From: a virus
Reading direction: 5' to 3' (one strand)
IMG/VR virus record: IMGVR_UViG_3300045988_036833
Coordinates: 1 to 55,859 of that record
Length of the DNA: 55,859 nt
Positions 56 through 55,859 of this stretch are shown one piece after another; positions within the stretch are counted from its first letter, which is position 1, and every line of letters starts with the position of its first letter. A program made the translations under genes and the position numbers. The notes below the pieces were generated by a model. It was not told where the DNA came from, made no database searches, and worked only from the letters and a program-made list of their open reading frames with translations.

Positions 56-791
56 TGTGGCAATCACTTGCAACCCTGACCTTCGCCCCATCTTTTTTGA
101 TATTGCCGAAAGCGGATATGTCCGGTATCGGCTGCGTTATACGTCACGGATGAAATCACAGTATAGCATCCTGCTTTATTCGATTCTTCGGGACTGGATG
201 AACATGGACAACAAGCCGCATGAAATCAGTCTGAAAAAACTGAGAGAACAGCTCGGTGCGATGGAAGCGAGCTACGATGTTTACAAGAACCTTCGAAAAA
301 GAGTGCTTGACGTTGCAGTAGATGAGATCAATGCTGTGTCTGACATTGTGGTGACCTACGAACCGGTTCTTGTGGCACGAAAGGCTGTGGCAGTCAAGTT
401 CAAGCCCAAAATTAAAGCGTCTGAGACGCTGATTGAAGCTCAGGCAAGCGAAGTATCAACCGAACCTCAAAAAACCGCCAGAAAGCCCCGCAGAAGCGGA
501 TACGAGGATTTTGACTGGTCTGTGTGTGACGAACTGGAAAAGCAAGACTGCATTGACGTGGCAAAAGTGGTTGAGAAGTGGATGAAGAAAGAACATCCTG
601 AAATCAAGTTGCCGAGACGCAGAGAAGCGGTTTACGACACGGTAAAGGCCGCGTATAAGGACATATTATCTTTGGACAGGTCTCCGTTCCCGGACAGACC
701 TGTTGGCTATCTCATTAGAAGCGTAGACAAAGCGGGTGTCGTAGACAAGTATATGCCAGCGTTCTATTCCATTGAAGTCTTGCAAGAGTAG
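1..791 (+). CDS. rep: Rep_3/RepB-type plasmid replication initiator, C-terminal part (gene wraps the circular junction; N-terminal part at 55519..55859)
   Basis: In frame with 55519..55859 through the 55-nt overlap, 358 codons in total. The tracked ORF 57..791 is an internal GTG. KSQYSILLYSILRDW...LREQLG...YKNLRKRVLDVAVDEIN fits iteron-binding Rep_3 initiators. Iterons lie just upstream of the start. TAG stop at 789-791. Confidence 0.85.
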   Translation, partial: VLFTRAKLDYVPETRSYVVAITCNPDLRPIFFDIAESGYVRYRLRYTSRMKSQYSILLYSILRDWMNMDNKPHEISLKKLREQLGAMEASYDVYKNLRKRVLDVAVDEINAVSDIVVTYEPVLVARKAVAVKFKPKIKASETLIEAQASEVSTEPQKTARKPRRSGYEDFDWSVCDELEKQDCIDVAKVVEKWMKKEHPEIKLPRRREAVYDTVKAAYKDILSLDRSPFPDRPVGYLIRSVDKAGVVDKYMPAFYSIEVLQE

Positions 792-835
792 CCAGATACA
801 GCACATTGAGCAGATGATGCAGAAAGGAGAAAACG

Positions 836-997
836 ATGAACAAGGTTTATGTGGTTCTTGCGGGATGTATGGGCGATTTATCTATAGAGGGTATATTTTC
901 TTCCGAAGAAAAAGCAAAAGCATATATTTCTGAAATGATGAAAGACGCATATCAAGCAAGCACGAAACCCTATTTTGAAGAATGGGATGTGCAATAA
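836..997 (+). CDS. Small hypothetical protein (53 aa)
   Basis: Not in the ORF track (<60 aa). ATG preceded by AAAGGAGAAAACG. Fills the rep-parA gap. MNKVYVVLAGCMGDLSIEG...EEWDVQ, TAA stop. Confidence 0.45.
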   Translation: MNKVYVVLAGCMGDLSIEGIFSSEEKAKAYISEMMKDAYQASTKPYFEEWDVQ

Positions 998-1012
998 AGA
1001 AAGAGTGATAAA

Positions 1013-1777
1013 ATGGCAAAAATCATAGCGGTTGCCAACCAGAAGGGCGGCACAGGAAAGACCACCACAAGCACCTGTCTGGCTGGTGCGTTGCAGTTGC
1101 TTGGCAAGAAAGTCTTGCTGGTGGACTGCGATGCCCAGTGTAACGCAACGGACACCTATGGCGCACAGACAGAGGACGTATGCACCCTGTTCGATGTGAT
1201 GACCCGGCAAGGAACAGCAGAGGAAGGAATCCAGCACTGTGAAGCCGGTGACATTCTTCCGTCAGACAGCGCATTGAAGGACATTGACGAGCAACTTGTC
1301 CGGGACATTGGCAAGAACTTTCGGCTGCGAGAAGCCCTTGAAAGCGTATCTGAGCAGTATGATTACATTGTGCTGGACACTCCCCCGCAGCTTGGTCTTG
1401 CGCTTGTAAACGCTCTGATCGCCGCCAACAGCATTATCGTACCTATCACAGCAGACCGATATGCACTGGCTGGTTTGAGCCAACTTTCGCAGACCATCGG
1501 AGATGTTCGCAGATACTTCAACCAGACTTTGAAGATTGAAGGTCTGCTTCTGAACCAGTACAAGAGCCGGGAGAACCTGTCTAAAGAGGTCGTAGAGCAG
1601 CTCCCTGTGATTGCACAAAGCATGGGAACAAAGCTGCTTGACGTGAAGATTAGACCGTCTATGGGCGTCCGTAAGGCGCAGGCAGAGCGGCACAGCCTGT
1701 TTAGCGGTGATACGGCAAAGAGTACCAGCGCAGAGGACTTCAAGGCGTTGGCGGAGATGATTGTGGAGGGAAAATAA
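1013..1777 (+). CDS. parA: ParA/Soj-family partition ATPase
   Basis: Deviant Walker A at the N-terminus (AVANQKGGTGKTTT), then VLLVDCDAQCN and IVLDTPP. About 254 aa, typical of plasmid type I ParA. Confidence 0.93.
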   Translation: MAKIIAVANQKGGTGKTTTSTCLAGALQLLGKKVLLVDCDAQCNATDTYGAQTEDVCTLFDVMTRQGTAEEGIQHCEAGDILPSDSALKDIDEQLVRDIGKNFRLREALESVSEQYDYIVLDTPPQLGLALVNALIAANSIIVPITADRYALAGLSQLSQTIGDVRRYFNQTLKIEGLLLNQYKSRENLSKEVVEQLPVIAQSMGTKLLDVKIRPSMGVRKAQAERHSLFSGDTAKSTSAEDFKALAEMIVEGK

Positions 1778-1779
1778 AA

Positions 1780-1992
1780 TTGGCTAAAAAGAAAACTGAA
1801 AATGTTGTACGTCCAATTGCACATTGGGAACAAGTAAATTACAGCTATGTGGACTTAGACAACGGCGGCGTTCAGGTAAAAGTGGCCGGTATTGGTTGTT
1901 CAAACTGCATGGCGAAGTTTAGGAAAAATTTTATGTGGGCAATCAATTTCTGCCCTAATTGCGGAGCACGAATGGAGGCTGTAGAAGAATGA
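1780..1992 (+). CDS. Small Zn-ribbon protein (CxxC...CxxC) within the par operon
   Basis: TTG start 3 nt after the parA stop, GGAGGG upstream. GCSNC...CPNCG motifs. Its stop overlaps the next start (ATGA at 1989-1992). Confidence 0.55.
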   Translation: MAKKKTENVVRPIAHWEQVNYSYVDLDNGGVQVKVAGIGCSNCMAKFRKNFMWAINFCPNCGARMEAVEE

Positions 1993-2561
1993 AATCAACC
2001 AGCAAAAAATCATCTGGCTTGCTTGGCGGGTTTGATTTCCAGCCTATTTTTTCAGAACAGACATTAAGCCGAAGTGAGCCAAAGGAAGAAGAAGTAAGCC
2101 AAACAAAGCCGAATAATGCCGAACAAGCACCGATTAAGCCTAGTGAAGCCACAGACGGCCATGCACAGCCGAGTGAAGCAGAATTAAGCGATATTAAGCC
2201 GAAGCAAGCCAAAGACAGCGAAACACAGCCGAGCAATGCCGTAGTAGGCGAAAGTAAGCCAAAGAAGCTGAAACAGGCGAAAGAAGTGCAGTGTTTGATT
2301 GAACAGGGCAATGTTCTAGGCGCACTGGCTGAAGCTGGTTTGACAAAGAAAAAAATCCCGATGCCGGAATCGCATCAGGGTATTGCAAGCGGTGACGGCA
2401 AGCGTTCTAAGCGCATTACCATCCTTATGAGCGAGGAAGAACGCAAGTACATCAATCGTGAAGCCAGACGGCACGGAATGACGATTGGACAGTTCGTGTA
2501 CGCTCTAGCGGCTGCGGCGGCAGAGGGGAAGATTGAACTGGAGGATTTCTTAGATGAATGA
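1989..2561 (+). CDS. Ribbon-helix-helix (RHH) protein with long low-complexity linker; candidate ParG/ParR-like centromere-binding adaptor
   Basis: ATG at 1989 with GGAGG upstream and an ATGA overlap with the previous gene (the tracked ORF starts at 1959). C-terminal KRITILMSEEERKYINREARRHGMTIGQFV looks like an RHH/CopG fold. Its position after parA supports the adaptor role. Confidence 0.6.
   Translation: MKSTSKKSSGLLGGFDFQPIFSEQTLSRSEPKEEEVSQTKPNNAEQAPIKPSEATDGHAQPSEAELSDIKPKQAKDSETQPSNAVVGESKPKKLKQAKEVQCLIEQGNVLGALAEAGLTKKKIPMPESHQGIASGDGKRSKRITILMSEEERKYINREARRHGMTIGQFVYALAAAAAEGKIELEDFLDE
2061..2280. repeat. 22 consecutive 10-bp-phased decamers (consensus RAANNNAGCC) inside the RHH gene
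   Basis: AGCC sits at decamer positions 7-10 exactly in 11 units (ending 2070, 2080, 2100, 2110, 2140, 2150, 2170, 2200, 2210, 2230, 2260). Six more units have one mismatch. The motif is read in all three codon phases. Confidence 0.85.
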
Positions 2562-3435
2562 TAGTGAACGACACCTTATTCGATTTGTTTGCGATGGTGA
2601 TATGCGAAACGCGCAAAAAGCTGTTAAAATCATTTTGAATTCCATATCATCCCAAAAAGATAAGCAGTTCAAAGAAAATATGTTTCGCAAGCTAGAAAGC
2701 AAAAGAGAATTTATTGAATTGCCATATAACTTACAGCATCTTTTGATTGCAGAGGATACAGAAGAATTTCCAGAAGCAAGATTCCTTCTTAGGAACGAAG
2801 AAAAAAATATAACGCAGAAAATTGTTGCCATTTATCGAGCCTCTGAAAAATTGAATGAAATGGGCATCCCTTATTTGCCTGCATTGATGCTTTATGGGCA
2901 AAGCGGATGCGGAAAAACCATGCTGGCTAGGTATATCGCGCATAAAGCAAAACTTCCGTTTTTGAGGATTCAATTTTCAAATCTAGTTGATTCGCACTTA
3001 GGACAAACACAATCTAACCTTGCAAGAATTTTTGATTATGTGAGAACCGTTCCTTGCGTTCTTTGTTTTGATGAAATAGATGCGGTCGGAATGGCTCGTG
3101 GGCAAAAAGATGACGTTGGGGAAATGAACCGTGTGGTTATTGCGATTATGCAGGAAATGGATAGATTGCCGAACAATGTCATCATTATCGGAACGACAAA
3201 CCGATTTGATAGGATTGACCCTGCGCTTACAAGAAGATTTCCGTTGCAATACGAATTAAAGCCGTTGTGCCGTGAGGATGCAGAAATGCTTTCTAAAAGG
3301 TTCTTTGAATATGCAGGAGCACAATATGAAAACATAGCTTATGAAGATCATGTCCCCGCATCTACCGTTATTAAAGAATGTACAGAGCGAATTGTAAATC
3401 AAGTTCTGAATCAAGAAGATTTCTTGGAGGATTGA
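2554..3435 (+). CDS. AAA+ ATPase (classic AAA clade) with about 110-aa helical N-domain
   Basis: Walker A GQSGCGKT, Walker B VLCFDEID, sensor-1 IIGTTN, Arg-finger region DPALTRRF. GGAGGA RBS. Start overlaps the RHH gene stop (ATGAATGA). Confidence 0.9.
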   Translation: MNDSERHLIRFVCDGDMRNAQKAVKIILNSISSQKDKQFKENMFRKLESKREFIELPYNLQHLLIAEDTEEFPEARFLLRNEEKNITQKIVAIYRASEKLNEMGIPYLPALMLYGQSGCGKTMLARYIAHKAKLPFLRIQFSNLVDSHLGQTQSNLARIFDYVRTVPCVLCFDEIDAVGMARGQKDDVGEMNRVVIAIMQEMDRLPNNVIIIGTTNRFDRIDPALTRRFPLQYELKPLCREDAEMLSKRFFEYAGAQYENIAYEDHVPASTVIKECTERIVNQVLNQEDFLED

Positions 3436-3438
3436 CGT

Positions 3439-4032
3439 ATGATTACTTACAGACCTCATCGTGGTTCTTTGGAAGATGCCATGAAAGAAGCAAAAACTTT
3501 TCTGAACGAATGGCAAATGAAACGGTATGTTGCAAATAACTGGAATCTTGCAATCGGAAGAAAAGTATTAGACCCCGAAGATATTATTATCGACAGCGAA
3601 TCAACAGACGATGACCGTGTCGGTTGGAAAAATGTTCACATGGTTTGCGCAAACAAGCTGAACGGAGAGGACTATGTAGAAAAATACGGATGCCCGCAGT
3701 GTATTGGCTATTGTGCATACAATAGTGAATGCAAAGAGGAACGGGAAGTAGAGGATTGGCAAATGATGAGATCGAAGGAATTTTACGAAGGAAGCATTAG
3801 CCGTTTACAGAAAATGGTTAAGCGTGGCATTTACGTTCTTTTGTTCGATGCCTTTGCTGTAGCAGTTCAGATTCCGTTTATCTTTGCTGGAAAATGGGTT
3901 GCAACGCACGTGATTTTGTCCATTGCAGTATCTTTTGCAGCGGGATTTAGTTTTAACACGCTTGTGGATAGCAAAAGACAACTTGATATGTACAAGGCAG
4001 ATATGGAATTGTACTATACCAAAGAAAAATAA
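3439..4032 (+). CDS. Membrane protein: soluble Cys-containing N-domain plus two C-terminal TM helices
   Basis: GGAGGA RBS, starts 3 nt after the AAA+ stop. CPQCIGYC motif. Hydrophobic stretches GIYVLLFDAFAVAVQIPFIF and VILSIAVSFAAGFSF. Confidence 0.75.
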   Translation: MITYRPHRGSLEDAMKEAKTFLNEWQMKRYVANNWNLAIGRKVLDPEDIIIDSESTDDDRVGWKNVHMVCANKLNGEDYVEKYGCPQCIGYCAYNSECKEEREVEDWQMMRSKEFYEGSISRLQKMVKRGIYVLLFDAFAVAVQIPFIFAGKWVATHVILSIAVSFAAGFSFNTLVDSKRQLDMYKADMELYYTKEK

Positions 4033-4051
4033 TTTATGCGAGGGGAGAAAA

Positions 4052-4312
4052 ATGCGCACATACAAGCCACACAGGTGCAGGAGCAAAGAGGAACAAGCCA
4101 AAATAAACGCAGAGGTAGCAAAACGTAAAGCAAAACTGGCTGAAAAGTACAATACTGACACTCAATATTACAAGGGCATTCCTGTTGAGCTGATTGTAAG
4201 AGAGGACTACGGTTGCTACAAAGCAAAGCGTTTCAAAATCAACGGTAGTAATCAAAACGTGTGGATTTCAAACTGCTACTTGAAGATGACGGAACAATCA
4301 AGACAAATATGA
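4052..4312 (+). CDS. Hypothetical protein (86 aa); possibly the 5' part of a frameshifted gene
   Basis: ATG at 4052 after GAGGGGAGAAAA (the tracked ORF 3923..4312 runs through the preceding gene). Basic N-terminus, then KRFKINGSNQNVWISNCYL. Confidence 0.55.
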   Translation: MRTYKPHRCRSKEEQAKINAEVAKRKAKLAEKYNTDTQYYKGIPVELIVREDYGCYKAKRFKINGSNQNVWISNCYLKMTEQSRQI

Positions 4313-4473
4313 ACATTGATTTTGTATTTCGTAAGTCTGTAAACCAGTTAAATAAAGCGGGAATCACGCAAGCGATTATTGGTATCAAACGTAAAATGCC
4401 GGAAGAAGATGTGCCAAATCTTAAAAGCACTATGCAGAAAATCGGAGATAAAGGAGGAATTACATGGGCGTAA
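4261..4473 (+). CDS. Hypothetical protein; alternative start ATG 4309 (ATGA overlap with previous stop) or 3' part of a frameshifted gene
   Basis: Overlaps 4052..4312 in the -1 frame. EDDGTIKTNMNIDFVFRKS continues naturally from ...NCYL of the upstream ORF. Confidence 0.45.
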   Translation: MDFKLLLEDDGTIKTNMNIDFVFRKSVNQLNKAGITQAIIGIKRKMPEEDVPNLKSTMQKIGDKGGITWA

Positions 4474-4895
4474 CCATCAAATGCAAAAAGACTAGGCGTG
4501 AAATGGATGTGGGCTATTTCGGCTTTTTCAAGTTGAGAGCGAAAGTTGCAGAACTTGTTGGTTCGGAAGTCGGAGAACACTATAAAAAACTTGATGACAT
4601 TTTCGATATGCCATCTCCCGAAAAAGAAAGCGCTCTTAAATCATACGATGACGAGACGGAGCGGATGATTGAAAGAAAGTCGCTTCCAATTAAAATCGCA
4701 GACTTTCTTTACCAGTCTGATTGCGATGGAAAAATCCGATATGGCGCTTGCAAGGAAATCTTAAAAGTCATAGGCGATTATGACGATAGCATTATTTACG
4801 GATATGCAGGTAGAGAAAATCCCGCAAAGTTCAAAGACTTCAAAGAAATCCTTCAAGATTGCGTAGACAATAAGTGCTTTATGATTTGGAGATAG
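4464..4895 (+). CDS. Hypothetical protein (143 aa)
   Basis: AAAGGAGGA RBS. Overlaps the previous stop. Last gene before a strong terminator. TAG stop. Confidence 0.7.
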   Translation: MGVTIKCKKTRREMDVGYFGFFKLRAKVAELVGSEVGEHYKKLDDIFDMPSPEKESALKSYDDETERMIERKSLPIKIADFLYQSDCDGKIRYGACKEILKVIGDYDDSIIYGYAGRENPAKFKDFKEILQDCVDNKCFMIWR

Positions 4896-4900
4896 CAACA

Positions 4901-4944
4901 AACCCCTGTGTAGCCGTTAAAAGCTACACAGGGGTTCTGTTTTT
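4901..4944. terminator. Bidirectional rho-independent terminator between convergent operons
   Basis: Perfect 14-bp stem aacccctgtgtagc / gctacacaggggtt with an 8-nt loop, followed by ctgttttt. An A-rich run lies on the other side. Confidence 0.85.
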
Positions 4945-5581
4945 ACTTATCAGCAATGCAATCCCAGTAGAGATATGCCTTGCCGTCTGCGGCATCTGCG
5001 TCCTCAAGGAACGCCTTTGCCATGTCAGCGTAGAAGCCCGGAGTGTCAACGGACTGGCGCTTTGCAACCTGACAATAATCCGAGTACATCATGTTCATCA
5101 CAGCCCAGAAATCGTTCGGGTCACAGGTGATATTGCGCTGTTTGGCAACGTCCTGTGTCTGCTCCAGCGTCCAGTGACATCCCTTCGTGCCGTCAGCATT
5201 CACCATGCTGTCGCACCATTCCTCCGCTTCATCGTGGGTGAGGTGCTTGCGTGGCATCTTGATAGAGCGGCTGTCCGCACCGCCATGCTCATACTGTCCA
5301 GACTGCTTGTCCCAGTCTCCGTGCTGCGAGAAGCCGATTTGCGGCATCTTGCGCCCATACTCTACGTCAGGGTAGCGGGGGATAGGGTAGGGGTCGATGT
5401 AGCGGTTCTCCTCCTGCGGATAGTAAGAATAGCGGTCATTGCCGTCTTCCAGCTTGCGCAGACGACGTTCCAGCTCACGCTCCCTGCGGTCACGCTCTTC
5501 CTCGAGGCGGTCACGTTCCGGCTCACGGTCTTTGTCGTGGTCGCGGAGCATCATCATGCGGCGAAAAGTGTTCTTGCCCAT
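4943..5581 (-). CDS. Hypothetical protein (212 aa), highly charged R/E/D N-terminus
   Basis: AAGGAGG RBS. N-terminal RDHDKDREPERDRLEEERDRRERELERRLRKLE. C-terminal globular part with HWTLEQT and MNMMYSDY. Last gene of the cargo operon. Confidence 0.75.
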   Translation of the reverse strand: MGKNTFRRMMMLRDHDKDREPERDRLEEERDRRERELERRLRKLEDGNDRYSYYPQEENRYIDPYPIPRYPDVEYGRKMPQIGFSQHGDWDKQSGQYEHGGADSRSIKMPRKHLTHDEAEEWCDSMVNADGTKGCHWTLEQTQDVAKQRNITCDPNDFWAVMNMMYSDYCQVAKRQSVDTPGFYADMAKAFLEDADAADGKAYLYWDCIADK

Positions 5582-9151: not shown

Positions 9152-9409
9152 TTACTCTCCTCTCTCTTTTTCGAGATCTTCGATGCGGTGGTTTGCCACC
9201 TTGATTTGTTCTTCCAGCACTGGCACGCGCTTGGCAAAGTTGTTGTGCTCCCGGACTTCGCGGGTCAGTTCTTCCAGCTTGGTTTCGGTCACAGCCTGCT
9301 GCTTGTCCAGCTTGGCGTCCATGCTCTGGGCGGTGTGGTTGTTAGAGACGATCACGCCGATCAGGCTCAGACCGCCGGTGATGATCGCCACAATGATTGC
9401 TTCGCTCAT
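9152..9409 (-). CDS. Membrane-anchored coiled-coil protein of the lysis cassette
   Basis: N-terminal TM helix AIIVAIITGGLSLIGVIV plus a heptad-rich tail. ATGA overlap with the endolysin stop. Confidence 0.6.
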   Translation of the reverse strand: MSEAIIVAIITGGLSLIGVIVSNNHTAQSMDAKLDKQQAVTETKLEELTREVREHNNFAKRVPVLEEQIKVANHRIEDLEKERGE

Positions 9410-10245
9410 GCGCCCTCCCGGAGACGGGTCAGACCCTTCTTGCGGATGATTTTCGGGTAGTTGCGGGTGGTGGCGTTGAGGTCTACATTTCCCGTAATGC
9501 CCGGCACAGAGCCCTTGCTAGTGTGCTGGTGGGCGTGGTAGATGTAATCCACTTTGGGCGTCTTGCCCGTGTAGTCGGCAAGCCAGACGTCCCAGCGGCC
9601 TGCCAAGCGCTGCATGTCCAACTCATAGCTGTAACCCGTGTAGGTGTACAGCTGGGCGTAAAAGCCCATTTTCTCCACCTGCTCCAGCGCATAGGCGGTG
9701 AGGTTGGTGAGGTCGAGGGTGCTCATGGGCTTGAGCTTGTTTTCCTCTACGTCCACCGCGAGGGGCATGGTAAGCTCCTTGCCGTAGACCGCCTGCCGCA
9801 CAAGGGCAAGCTCTGCATCGGCCATCGCCTCGCTGGTGGCGTAGGTGTAGTAGTAGACACCCACGTCCAGCCCGGCAGCCCGTGCGTTGCGGTAATTGGT
9901 CTCAAATGTCGGGTCGACGTACAGCCCGTCCTTGCGTTTGCTCAGCTTGCTGTTGGTGGATACCGTCTTGAGCATGGCCCCCTTGTAGCCCGCCGCCTTA
10001 ATTTTGCGCCAGCCGTCGAGGGTGATTTTGCCCTGATACCGGCTCACGTCAATGTATCGGTAGGGTGGTGCGCCCTCCCAGCCGGGAGGAGCAGCACTCT
10101 GGGTGTCCACGGTGGACACGTCATAAATGCTTTTCTTGTCGTTGTAAATGCGGTACTCGCCATCCGGTGCGCCGGAGACGTCTGCCGCTTCCTTTGCGTG
10201 GGCAAGGGCGGCGAAGAGACGGGAGAAGAAAGTCAGGAGGTTCAT
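9406..10245 (-). CDS. Endolysin, GH25 muramidase family, with hydrophobic N-terminal signal/anchor
   Basis: IDVSRYQGKI, GAMLKT, GLDVGVYYYTYA and a later WLADY block fit the GH25 lysozyme pattern. N-terminal LLTFFSRLFAALAHA. Confidence 0.85.
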   Translation of the reverse strand: MNLLTFFSRLFAALAHAKEAADVSGAPDGEYRIYNDKKSIYDVSTVDTQSAAPPGWEGAPPYRYIDVSRYQGKITLDGWRKIKAAGYKGAMLKTVSTNSKLSKRKDGLYVDPTFETNYRNARAAGLDVGVYYYTYATSEAMADAELALVRQAVYGKELTMPLAVDVEENKLKPMSTLDLTNLTAYALEQVEKMGFYAQLYTYTGYSYELDMQRLAGRWDVWLADYTGKTPKVDYIYHAHQHTSKGSVPGITGNVDLNATTRNYPKIIRKKGLTRLREGA

Positions 10246-10294: not shown

Positions 10295-11902
10295 TTAACC
10301 TGTATATTTTGATGGATATTCTGTATCGCTTGTTATGATCCCCCCTCGAATGACTGCTGTATCATATTTGCTTCCATAACTTTCGCAATTATACAAATAC
10401 ATTTCGGAATTACTTGTCCAATAATTTGACATTCTGTCTGGGTAATTAGCGTCTGTAATAGTAGAGATGCCGCTCGAACATCCATAATTAGCAGATTTAC
10501 AATCCTTATCTGCAACAACTCCACCGTGGCAAGCATAATATTTCCCATTGAGCCGAACAATGTAAGAACCATCATGTGATGTGGTAGCGTTAGAAGATTG
10601 CCCGGCATCTGATGTTAGGTATGAAGAACCATTATTATACGATTCGCAATTTACTTCAAGAGTATGATTTACAATATTGTTGTTGGCATGATAATTTAGT
10701 CCATCAAACGCATTATTATATGCCTTACAACCAATTACATAGGAAGTTCCGCCCAAAATACTTAGCCCATTTGAATTTTCTGCCATGTCAGAACCAGAAA
10801 ATATACATTTAAAAAGCGCAATTACTTTGTTTTCGGAAAGTACCGCTTTCAAAGTATTATATCCATGTAAAAACTGAAGAGATTCAATATAGCAAGAGTT
10901 TTTTATGCAAATCGGAGCATTCTTTTCGCCTATTCCATTGTCAATTACAACATTCCCAAGTCCAATTATGTTAATACTTTTTTCAATTTCTTCACCAGCT
11001 ATAAAATTCTCACCGGATTTATAGACACCCTCAGCCATCAATAGTGTTTGAATGTTTTTAACAGACAAAGCCCCTGCTATAGTTTTTTTAGGCGTCCTTA
11101 TACTTAATCCATCATTTTCATCATCTCCATCGGGAGACAAAAACACATTTATTCCGTCTTTCTTGTTTATGAAGCAATTTTTTACATTAAAATCCGTATA
11201 ATATCCATTGTTATCCTTGTAAATAGTTGCTTTAATTTTATCTTCATCAAACGGAAGAGCAATTGTTTCTCGTTTATTAGCCACGTTTAATTGCTCACCA
11301 ATATTGTCGTATTGTATCAATGATACATTGCTCATTTCAGAAACGTTCATATCCGATTCATCTATTTTTTTTAGCATAAATGCTGCATAAACGTCCCTGT
11401 CGTATTCAATCTTATAGTCATCACTTCTATATTTAAAGTCGAGCAATGCCACTCCACCGATTGAGTCAAAAAGCTGCAAAGCATACACGTATCCATCCTT
11501 AACGGTTACAAGGTATTTTTTACCAGCTTTAAGCAGAAAAGCTTCTGCATAAGAAGTAATTTTATTGATTGTTCTCAATCTGTTTTTAACATCTATATAT
11601 TCTATTGCCGCGACATAAGATCCTTTATTTACGGCAATTCCTCCCATATATGCCGGCAGATCTTCTTTCTTATATATTCCTATGTCTTCTAAATCTTCCT
11701 TTAGCGCACCAACCGCATCACCAGTAGCTTTTGCATCCGCAGCCTTGCCGGAGAGGGAGAGGGTGGGGTCGATGATATTATCGACAACGGCTTTCGTTTC
11801 GTTGGCGGCAGATTCGACCTCCACAATGCCGTTCTCGATGTGGTTCAGCTGCGGAGCGGTAAGTACTTCGCCGTTTGCAAAGTTTTGCTTTTGATAGCTC
11901 AT
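10295..11902 (-). CDS. Tail fibre / receptor-binding protein with beta-helix (pectate-lyase-like) C-terminal region
   Basis: N-terminal FANGEVLTAPQLNHIENGI is typical of fibre anchors. The C-terminal part has repeated N/G-rich rungs (NAFDGLNYHANNNIVNH..., GGVVADKDC). Sharp drop in GC below about 11690. Confidence 0.75.
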   Translation of the reverse strand: MSYQKQNFANGEVLTAPQLNHIENGIVEVESAANETKAVVDNIIDPTLSLSGKAADAKATGDAVGALKEDLEDIGIYKKEDLPAYMGGIAVNKGSYVAAIEYIDVKNRLRTINKITSYAEAFLLKAGKKYLVTVKDGYVYALQLFDSIGGVALLDFKYRSDDYKIEYDRDVYAAFMLKKIDESDMNVSEMSNVSLIQYDNIGEQLNVANKRETIALPFDEDKIKATIYKDNNGYYTDFNVKNCFINKKDGINVFLSPDGDDENDGLSIRTPKKTIAGALSVKNIQTLLMAEGVYKSGENFIAGEEIEKSINIIGLGNVVIDNGIGEKNAPICIKNSCYIESLQFLHGYNTLKAVLSENKVIALFKCIFSGSDMAENSNGLSILGGTSYVIGCKAYNNAFDGLNYHANNNIVNHTLEVNCESYNNGSSYLTSDAGQSSNATTSHDGSYIVRLNGKYYACHGGVVADKDCKSANYGCSSGISTITDANYPDRMSNYWTSNSEMYLYNCESYGSKYDTAVIRGGIITSDTEYPSKYTG

Positions 11903-55354: not shown

Positions 55355-55465
55355 ATGGGGGACGAAATGACAAAGCATGGGGGACGTTTTGACAAGTCAC
55401 GGGGGACAAAATGACGAGGACATGGGGGACAAAAAGACAAGTCATGGGGGACAAAAATTGTTGAC
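55355..55465 (+). repeat. oriV iterons: five direct about 22-bp repeats (ATGGGGGACnnnnTGACAAG)
   Basis: Cores start at 55355, 55377, 55399 (ACGGGGGAC), 55422 and 55444, spaced 22-23 bp. An AT-rich stretch lies at 55290-55350 immediately upstream. Confidence 0.88.
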
Positions 55466-55489
55466 ACGTCCCCCTACTTGTGATATACT
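55461..55489 (+). promoter_or_regulatory. rep promoter with an inverted iteron core in the spacer
   Basis: TTGACA (55461-66), a 17-nt spacer containing GTCCCCC (55468-74), then TATACT (55484-89). The rep ATG is at 55519 after AAAGGAAGTGAGCAG. Confidence 0.65.
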
Positions 55490-55518: not shown

Positions 55519-55859
55519 ATGCCAAAAATATCAGACAATAACCTTGTTGAGAAAAGTAAATCCCTTGTTTGGGCGAAGTTCAGGGACTATACGGCAGGCG
55601 AACTTCGGTTGCTAGAGGTTTACTTGTCAAGAATAAATCCGAGAGACCCAAGCAGCAGCCGTGTGGAGTTCACTTTGGCGGAATACAGGGAGCTTCTTGG
55701 ACTGAAAAGCCTTGATGCACGAAGGATTGAGCCGCAGATCAAGCACTTTTTGGGCAATACGGTGTCGATTCCCATTGATAAAGAGAAGGGCACGTTTGAA
55801 AGCTTTGTCCTATTTACAAGGGCAAAACTAGACTATGTACCGGAAACAAGGTCTTATGT
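55519..55859 (+). CDS. rep: Rep_3/RepB-type replication initiator, N-terminal part (continues at 1..791 across the circular junction)
   Basis: MPKISDNNLVEKSKSLVWAKFRDYTAGELRLLEVYLSRINPRD...EFTLAEYRELLGL is the typical N-terminus of iteron-dependent Rep_3 initiators. The frame runs off the window end. Confidence 0.85.
   Translation, partial: MPKISDNNLVEKSKSLVWAKFRDYTAGELRLLEVYLSRINPRDPSSSRVEFTLAEYRELLGLKSLDARRIEPQIKHFLGNTVSIPIDKEKGTFESFVLFTRAKLDYVPETRSY

Follow-up and report, generated by a model that had tools for sequence, protein, structure and literature searches.

Does the AT-rich gene block at positions 2554-4895 of IMG/VR virus record IMGVR_UViG_3300045988_036833, headed by an AAA+ ATPase and a protein with two C-terminal transmembrane (TM) helices, act as a defence system carried behind a replication-partition (rep-par) operon? 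An account made from the DNA alone (hereafter the sequence-only reading) had proposed an ATPase/membrane-effector pair of the abortive-infection or exclusion kind, with plasmid maintenance as its alternative. We analysed computationally the full 55,859 nucleotides (nt) of this stretch, referred to below as the window, which is a whole circularly permuted element of about 56 kb, cut inside rep. The block is a slot for accessory genes, hypervariable in content, at the 3' end of a rep-DUF7336-parA-Zn-RHH operon (RHH, ribbon-helix-helix), and its cassettes are independent genes, not a system. By sequence comparison its ATPase appears to be an orphan relative of IetA without the usual protease partner. 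The explanation that we favour overall, at a probability of roughly 0.55, is an accessory slot with an orphan IetA-like ATPase whose role would be antitoxin-like or counter-defence. The block contains the following genes and open reading frames (ORFs; aa, amino acids):

2554-3435, + strand: IetA-like classic-clade AAA+ ATPase, 293 aa, an optional cassette (matches in PADLOC, NCBIfam, PHROG and Pfam)
3439-4032, + strand: chimeric 197-aa ORF (gene 2), the halves of which match separate genes in relatives
4052-4473, + strand: PHROG 7070 cassette, about 137 aa if intact but frameshifted here (PHROG profile, alignment with relatives)
4464-4895, + strand: 143-aa cassette (ORF5) of cluster v7, intact (weak match to PHROG 19831, E = 7e-6)

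The element's relatives form a very large family of human-gut virome contigs of 55-61 kb, hundreds of them in IMG/VR. We compared the region in two samples: an AAA+-selected sample of 80 loci found through the ATPase (95-98% identity), and a ParA-selected sample of 80 loci with ParA at least 97% identical, 76 of which span the region. The second is the fairer one because its loci were taken through ParA. Among the AAA+-selected loci, between about 280 and 2130 nt separate the ATPase stop from a convergent DUF7841 gene; 69 versions of this stretch occurred, their content shuffled. The ATPase was absent from 53 of the 76 ParA-selected relatives, intact in 19 and present as fragments in 4, and is therefore itself an optional cassette. 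In the same sample a 2-TM gene corresponding to the membrane part of gene 2 was found in 6 of the 23 loci with an ATPase and in 12 of the 53 without one (odds ratio 1.2, Fisher p = 0.77), and in some ATPase-free relatives the 2-TM cassette directly follows the RHH gene. The 234 pooled loci gave 166 distinct slot versions of 312-3213 nt, made up of 58 clusters of small, AT-rich cassettes (41 recurrent) and lying between conserved flanks with a mean nucleotide difference of 7.7%. On a flank tree of 74 loci, ATPase presence needs at least 15 changes, compared with 19.8 +/- 1.5 for shuffled tips. The dN/dS of the ATPase was 0.084 and that of four other cassettes lay in the same range of 0.08-0.19, so the cassettes are real genes.

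Some of these cassettes resemble known families. A scan of 38 cassette representatives gave one match each to GmrSD_N/DUF262, to PADLOC NsnA (E = 1.8e-17) and to Lar restriction alleviation. By sequence, the GmrSD_N match and probably that to NsnA belong to cluster v37 (loci L219 and L211) and Lar would be cluster v39 (L249 and L237). The Lar and GmrSD_N cassettes hint that the slot trades restriction or anti-restriction-type genes. An alternative filling, seen in L208, L241 and L248, consists of a small RHH_1 or TM cassette with a 306-aa Bro-N protein, and was never found in company with the ATPase; the Bro-N protein resembles the operon's own RHH protein, with 42% identity between its C-terminus and the C-terminal RHH region of the latter. 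Damaged ATPase copies were also seen in several relatives (L005, which is MT836731, and L213, L258, L265 and L267). That of MT836731 (L005 7851-8628) has lost its Walker A region by an internal deletion and the others are fragments; the cassette therefore decays, besides being lost cleanly.

Gene 2 had been read as a soluble domain joined to a membrane anchor, a layout typical of effectors. Its two C-terminal hydrophobic helices were borne out, with two 19-residue stretches of high hydrophobicity that begin near residues 130 and 153, but the layout is not a natural one. At the nucleotide level, 3425-3723 corresponds to the 5' half of a YRPHRGSL/DUF551-type cassette and 3751-4025 to a complete 89-aa 2-TM cassette, with a 27-nt join at 3724-3750; within gene 2, the 2-TM cassette is placed at 3763-4032. 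Relative to arrays such as those of L102, L130 and L220, the fusion arose by an in-frame deletion of about 530 nt. It is a singleton, found in 0 of 165 other region versions, and the 120 homologues listed for its TM part were all 86-99 aa long and all came from contigs of the same element family. On this comparison the 197-aa membrane protein results from a one-off deletion that fused two separate cassettes. It had no match in Pfam, PADLOC or NCBIfam.

The rest of the block needed correction as well. The PHROG 7070 profile is divided between ORF3 (4052-4312) and ORF4 (4261-4473) by a frameshift, a single T missing between 4278 and 4279: relatives have TGCTATCTTGAA where the window has TGCTA-CTTGAA, and four relatives read through. 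Intact versions of this cassette in relatives are 135-144 aa long. Because ORF3 and ORF4 come from a single gene that the 1-nt deletion has split, the chain after the RHH gene comprises four genes, not the five first counted. ORF5 occurs in 25 region versions, both with and without the AAA+ gene, and has a dN/dS of 0.079. These ORFs had been thought to have no recognisable family; they matched PHROG 7070 and PHROG 19831, both of them function-unknown families. Searches of PADLOC, Pfam and NCBIfam with ORF2, ORF3 and ORF5, and of Pfam and PADLOC with ORF4, returned nothing usable.

The ATPase itself proved, as predicted, to be of the AAA+ classic clade with intact Walker A, Walker B, sensor-1 and Arg-finger motifs, matching PF00004 at E = 1.5e-31 (110 bits against a cut-off of 21.2). 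Its best solved relatives were Rix7, p97/Cdc48 and FtsH. Walker A (G115-x-S-G-x-G-K121-T122), Walker B (D173-E174), sensor-1 (T214-T-N216) and Arg227/Arg228 were invariant over 32 homologues, and a pore-loop-like x-L149-G150, of the form (H/Y/F)-L-G, was also kept. In an AlphaFold2 model (pLDDT 83), residues 3-49 form a three-helix bundle, which is followed by a linker and then by the AAA+ alpha/beta and lid domains; the fold of the model matched FtsH, p97 and Rpt at E of about 1e-12. Foldseek of the model against PDB and BFVD gave generic AAA+ matches only. The N-terminal domain could thus be modelled, but the fold search identified no relative of it among solved structures, whole-chain matches being dominated by the ATPase core, and the listed sequence and fold matches to solved structures included no IetA-named entry.

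Profile searches were more informative. PADLOC IetA models matched the ATPase at E = 7.6e-55 (residues 22-289), 4.5e-45, 5.4e-45 and 5e-31, and they align its N-terminal region from residue 22-23 onward, a region that the sequence-only reading had left unassigned. The top NCBIfam match was "anti-phage ATPase IteA" (NF042959), at 177.4 bits compared with an equivalog cut-off of 510; the next family was PAN, at 90 bits. PHROG 3757 matched nearly full-length (E = 1.7e-61, residues 4-262). A Rhizobium homologue encoded beside an S8 peptidase was 31.7% identical over window residues 8-264 by tblastn, while hhalign against the S8-partnered Rhizobium ATPase aligned the core alone, with 41% identity over 160 columns. 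Because hhalign covered only the core, homology of the N-terminal domain to IetA rests on the hidden Markov model and tblastn alignments. Taken by its sequence matches, the ATPase would be described as IetA-like, short of an IteA equivalog.

We then asked what accompanies the ATPase elsewhere. A large protein database held 537 relatives at E <= 1e-10, and the best 120 of the 537 were almost all 293-321 aa long and 57-95% identical. Genome loci with homologues (23 in all) came from Oscillospiraceae, Christensenella, Butyricicoccus, Caproiciproducens and other Clostridia. About 27 distant homologues (49-67% identity) lie in prophage early regions, a serine-recombinase island and an element resembling integrative and conjugative elements (ICE-like), with neighbours that include DnaB, SSB, Sak4-like AAA_24, AAA_23, YopX, GIY-YIG, methyltransferases, a metallophosphatase and DUF551. 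An all-against-all BLAST of the genes flanking six distant homologues, together with the cassette representatives, found no shared neighbour family. The proposed conservation of the ATPase/membrane-protein pair failed at this point: in a hydropathy screen beside the roughly 27 distant homologues, a small TM protein lay immediately downstream in only 1. The same screen recorded a 9-TM transporter 344 nt away in two loci, probably outside the element.

No IetS-like partner was found either. The window has no S8 protease, and two IetS queries run by tblastn against the whole circular element gave nothing below E = 3. None lay closer than about 6 kb to any of some 30 distant or about 240 family loci, and there was no Peptidase_S8 in the precomputed Pfam lists for the neighbours of the distant homologues. 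As controls, the canonical pairing of IetA with IetS was observed on plasmids of Acidovorax and Rhizobium.

Comparison with relatives also suggests how the cassettes move; the junction repeats were recognised only in this way. The two copies flanking the ATPase are:

2541-2561, + strand: left copy of a 21-nt imperfect direct repeat, GAGGATTTCTTAGATGAATGA, forming an altered RHH 3' end and holding the AAA+ ATG (2554)
3415-3435, + strand: right copy, GAAGATTTCTTGGAGGATTGA, forming the last AAA+ codons (..EDFLED*)

Of the 21 positions, 17 are identical between the copies. Where relatives lack the AAA+ gene, their RHH gene ends in GAGGATTTCTTGGAGGATTGA, after which come CGT and the start codon ATG of the following cassette, and this ending is the 3' end of the AAA+ gene in the window. 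The EDFLED tail of the ATPase, absent in more distant AAA+ homologues, was therefore borrowed from the 3' end of the RHH gene. The same-strand chain with its close spacing was verified: the RHH stop and AAA+ start overlap as ATGAATGA (2554-2561), and the AAA+ stop at 3435 is separated by 3 nt (3436-3438) from the next ATG at 3439. Since the 21-nt repeat flanks the ATPase cassette, the translational coupling read into that overlap is an insertion scar.

A second type of junction is a 22-nt linker containing a ribosome-binding site, GATAAAAGTTAAGATTTAGGAG, found in relatives 54 times (up to 4 mismatches) in 39 versions, ahead of 18 different cassette families. In addition, several unrelated cassettes have their first few codons in common, with the start peptides MRTYKPH(K/R)HRSKEEQ and M-I-x-YRPHRGSL (window 4052-4066 and 3439-3462; clusters v5, v31 and v1), and recombination breakpoints therefore lie just inside gene 5' ends. 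Exchange at such short common junctions, together with deletions like that in gene 2, explains the slot diversity. An integron-like arrangement was considered and rejected, as there were no repeated recombination sites above chance within 3300-5000.

The slot closes an operon whose remaining features are:

57-791, + strand: rep (Rep3), the first gene in a tight ORF chain ending at the terminator
836-997, + strand: DUF7336 gene, in the rep-parA gap
1013-1777, + strand: parA
1780-1992, + strand: zinc-ribbon gene, in the parA-RHH gap
1989 (start approximate)-2561, + strand: RHH (NikA/CopG-like) protein (PF21983, E = 2.6e-5)
4901-4936, + strand: intrinsic terminator with a perfect 14-bp stem (8 GC pairs) and the T-tail CTGTTTTT

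All ORFs from rep to the terminator run on the same strand and are tightly packed. Every family locus examined has the RHH gene; with it the conserved part of the rep-parA operon ends, and it borders the variable slot on the left. The N-terminus of Rep is encoded at the far end of the window, where 55519-55857 supplies the first 113 codons, joined to 3-791. Just 5' of rep is a near-consensus promoter (55461-55489; TTGACA, 17 nt, TATACT, extended TG). In a consensus-only scan it was the nearest strong one, with no convincing internal + strand promoter before 4669. The element also carries genes for a GH25 endolysin and a large terminase alongside Rep3 and ParA, and is therefore a phage-plasmid; MT836731 is 93% identical to it in nucleotide sequence.

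No + strand terminator was predicted within 57-4900, and that at 4901-4936 closes the rep-par-accessory operon. The strong bidirectional terminator of the sequence-only reading was thus recovered on the + strand; on the - strand the T-tract of the hairpin has only 4 T in 8, under the scan criterion, leaving bidirectionality plausible. Beyond it lies the convergent late-region DUF7841 gene (4943-5581, - strand), identified by a DUF7841 profile match; terminator and DUF7841 gene together delimit the slot on its right. Two more small variable slots occur in the operon. The rep-parA gap holds the DUF7336 gene here and other genes in MT836731 (L005 5004-5506), and the parA-RHH gap holds the zinc-ribbon gene, which is carried by a minority of relatives only (L005 6289-6876).

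The low GC content of the block, first judged by eye, was confirmed by computation as 0.393. Rep is at 0.476, parA at 0.529, the late genes at 0.564 and the element overall at 0.480, and the block ranks in the lowest 0.7% of equal-sized windows. Horizontal acquisition is upheld by this composition and by presence and absence among relatives with ParA at least 97% identical. A second strongly AT-rich patch (10295-11902, - strand, GC about 0.35) contains an ORF of 535 aa that has no Pfam match and adjoins the GH25 endolysin gene (9406-10245). This ORF may be another acquired or fast-evolving gene, such as one for a receptor-binding protein.

What might the ATPase do? We propose that it would act as a self-sufficient, hexameric classic-clade protein unfoldase or remodeller, having a complete nucleotide site and the (H/Y/F)-L-G pore loop, with the three-helix N-domain presumably choosing the target. 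Soon after cell entry it would neutralise or remodel a protein of the host or of a rival element, for example an IetS-type protease. Such an antitoxin-like or counter-defence role, suggested by sequence, is proposed with low confidence. We favour counter-defence because the ATPase is IetA-like, never found with IetS, and an accessory gene among early genes, and because the slot elsewhere holds Lar-like, DUF262 and Bro-N cassettes. Several points weigh against it. There is no conserved partner gene pointing to a target, and the ATPase has 293 aa compared with 352 and 387 aa in two partnered ATPases. Being shorter and far below the NCBI equivalog cut-off, it may belong to a sister family with an unrelated substrate, and 49-70% identity over diverse Clostridia elements fits a conserved phage or housekeeping target equally well. 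Damage to two of the four cassettes may reflect relaxed selection on the slot here, or could be an assembly error. A wider version of the proposal, which we regard as a long shot, is that orphan IetA-like ATPases of about 300 aa are widespread stand-alone antitoxin mimics that silence IetS-type or comparable abortive-infection effectors at entry and are traded via junction repeats at the end of par operons. The family would then include PHROG 3757 as well as variants, numbering in the hundreds, from Clostridia phages, ICE-like elements and the gut phage-plasmid.

The main rival is a function unrelated to immunity, in which the ATPase is an ordinary phage early gene that remodels some phage or host protein on which replication, recombination or takeover of the host depends, and resembles IetA solely through shared ancestry. 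We consider this unlikely, though several observations favour it: homologues with 49-67% identity neighbour DnaB, SSB, Sak4-like AAA_24, AAA_23, YopX and GIY-YIG, the family is tightly conserved under strong purifying selection, PHROG 3757 is a phage family of unknown function, and the score falls under the IteA equivalog cut-off. Yet the ATPase is dispensable in most family members, and its gains and losses on the flank tree are nearly random. No partner gene is fixed beside it, and its composition is AT-rich and foreign, all of which mark an accessory gene rather than a core replication gene. The pair, modular-effector and plasmid-maintenance explanations fit worse. Maintenance, in which the ATPase remodels the Rep3 initiator or partition complex, much as iteron-plasmid initiators are activated by ClpA/ClpX or DnaK, or serves as the antitoxin of a post-segregational killing system, gains from the overlap of its gene with the last gene of the rep-parA-RHH operon, from the unfoldase character of classic-clade AAA+ proteins and from the first description of IetAS as a determinant of plasmid stability and incompatibility. 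Against this, the ATPase is missing from about 70% of relatives whose rep-par genes are essentially the same, the overlap of its gene with that for the RHH protein is an insertion scar marked by the 21-nt repeat, homologues occur in integrated prophages, the serine-recombinase island and the ICE-like element without Rep3 or ParA, and neither the window nor the surroundings of homologues yielded a toxin or protease partner. We ruled out a Rep-chaperone or partition role as the main explanation since most relatives lack the ATPase, and think the maintenance alternative of the sequence-only reading, taken whole, decidedly improbable.

The two defence models share the difficulty that ATPase and downstream genes are not linked. 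In the simpler one, the ATPase is the sensor and the C-terminally membrane-anchored protein the effector of a two-gene abortive-infection or exclusion system. The genes are only 3 nt apart in the window, in 31 of the 79 unique versions of the AAA+-selected sample the stand-alone 2-TM cassette comes directly after the ATPase, more often than any other gene, and the ATPase family is known from a defence system, which is the part of the original defence link that survives. The pair itself does not: the 197-aa protein is a unique deletion fusion, presence of ATPase and 2-TM gene is statistically independent in the ParA-selected sample, the 2-TM cassette is found right after the RHH gene without an ATPase, a small TM protein lies downstream of the ATPase in just 1 of about 27 distant homologues, none of whose neighbours is conserved, and the 2-TM protein has no PADLOC match. 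We regard this model as very improbable. A modular variant, with the IetA-like ATPase as the constant sensor or regulator and swappable downstream cassettes, among them the 2-TM and YRPHRGSL/DUF551 proteins, as alternative effectors of a lysogen defence expressed in the plasmid state from the rep-par operon, seems to us improbable but less so than either maintenance or the pair. When present, the AAA+ gene is always the first (61 versions) or second (17 versions) cassette after the RHH gene, the slot is predicted to share a transcript with genes whose expression plasmid maintenance requires, and IetAS variants that gain or lose modules are documented (PMC13069673). However, the same downstream cassettes are just as frequent without the ATPase, the common ones match no known effector family, and distant homologues sit in lytic early regions beside unrelated SSB, recombinases and methyltransferases.

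The block is unsuited to follow-up as a two-gene defence system, the pairing being an accident of one genome. An ATPase-only natural form offers a way to test the action of IetA on IetS and its exploitation by phages. With at least 166 versions in a very abundant gut phage-plasmid, the slot can be used for studying accessory-gene exchange at short junctions, and its cassettes are a shortlist of small genes (Lar-like, DUF262, Bro-N) that may affect competition between phage and host or between elements.

Finally, we compared the locus with known systems. With the classic-clade unfoldases (FtsH, p97/Cdc48, Rix7, proteasomal Rpt/PAN and Vps4) the ATPase shares the fold, all nucleotide-site motifs, the pore-loop-like (H/Y/F)-L-G and a small helical N-domain before a single AAA module; it differs in having no protease, second ATPase ring or membrane anchor. 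IetAS is reportedly a stability and incompatibility toxin-antitoxin pair of pTi-SAKURA (Yamamoto, 2009), and is said to have been recognised as an anti-phage system by Gao in 2020. It was first described as a plasmid-stabilising pair with a protease toxin and an ATPase antitoxin, and its anti-phage mechanism is still unknown (PMC13069673). In Bacillus cereus, IetAS acts by abortive infection triggered by SPbeta YosG (bioRxiv 10.1101/2022.08.27.505566). The window ATPase is like IetA in belonging to the same AAA+ subfamily, most of the N-terminal region included, in its 32-35% identity to ATPases beside S8 peptidases on Acidovorax and Rhizobium plasmids, and in its place on a mobile element beside plasmid maintenance genes. 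It is unlike IetA in that neither the element nor the surroundings of any homologue examined contain IetS (an S8 protease), in lacking the C-terminal 70-90 residues of the 352- and 387-aa plasmid ATPases, and in belonging to a distinct, tight family of about 300 aa from Clostridia phages and other mobile elements; its own family, PHROG 3757, carries no assigned function.

The slot, for its part, recalls the accessory (moron) hot spots of phages, such as those of P2 and P4 and the lambdoid mosaic junctions with their short conserved boundary sequences. Like them, it has fixed flanks and hypervariable content among near-identical genomes, is AT-rich with short common junction sequences at cassette borders, and holds restriction or anti-restriction-type items (Lar, GmrSD_N and the IetA-like ATPase). 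Unlike them, it sits inside a phage-plasmid rep-par operon with no promoter of its own detected, and most of its cassettes match no known family. Altogether, the slot belongs to a known phenomenon, that of mosaic accessory regions in temperate phages, and the ATPase to a known family, of which it is a protease-less variant.

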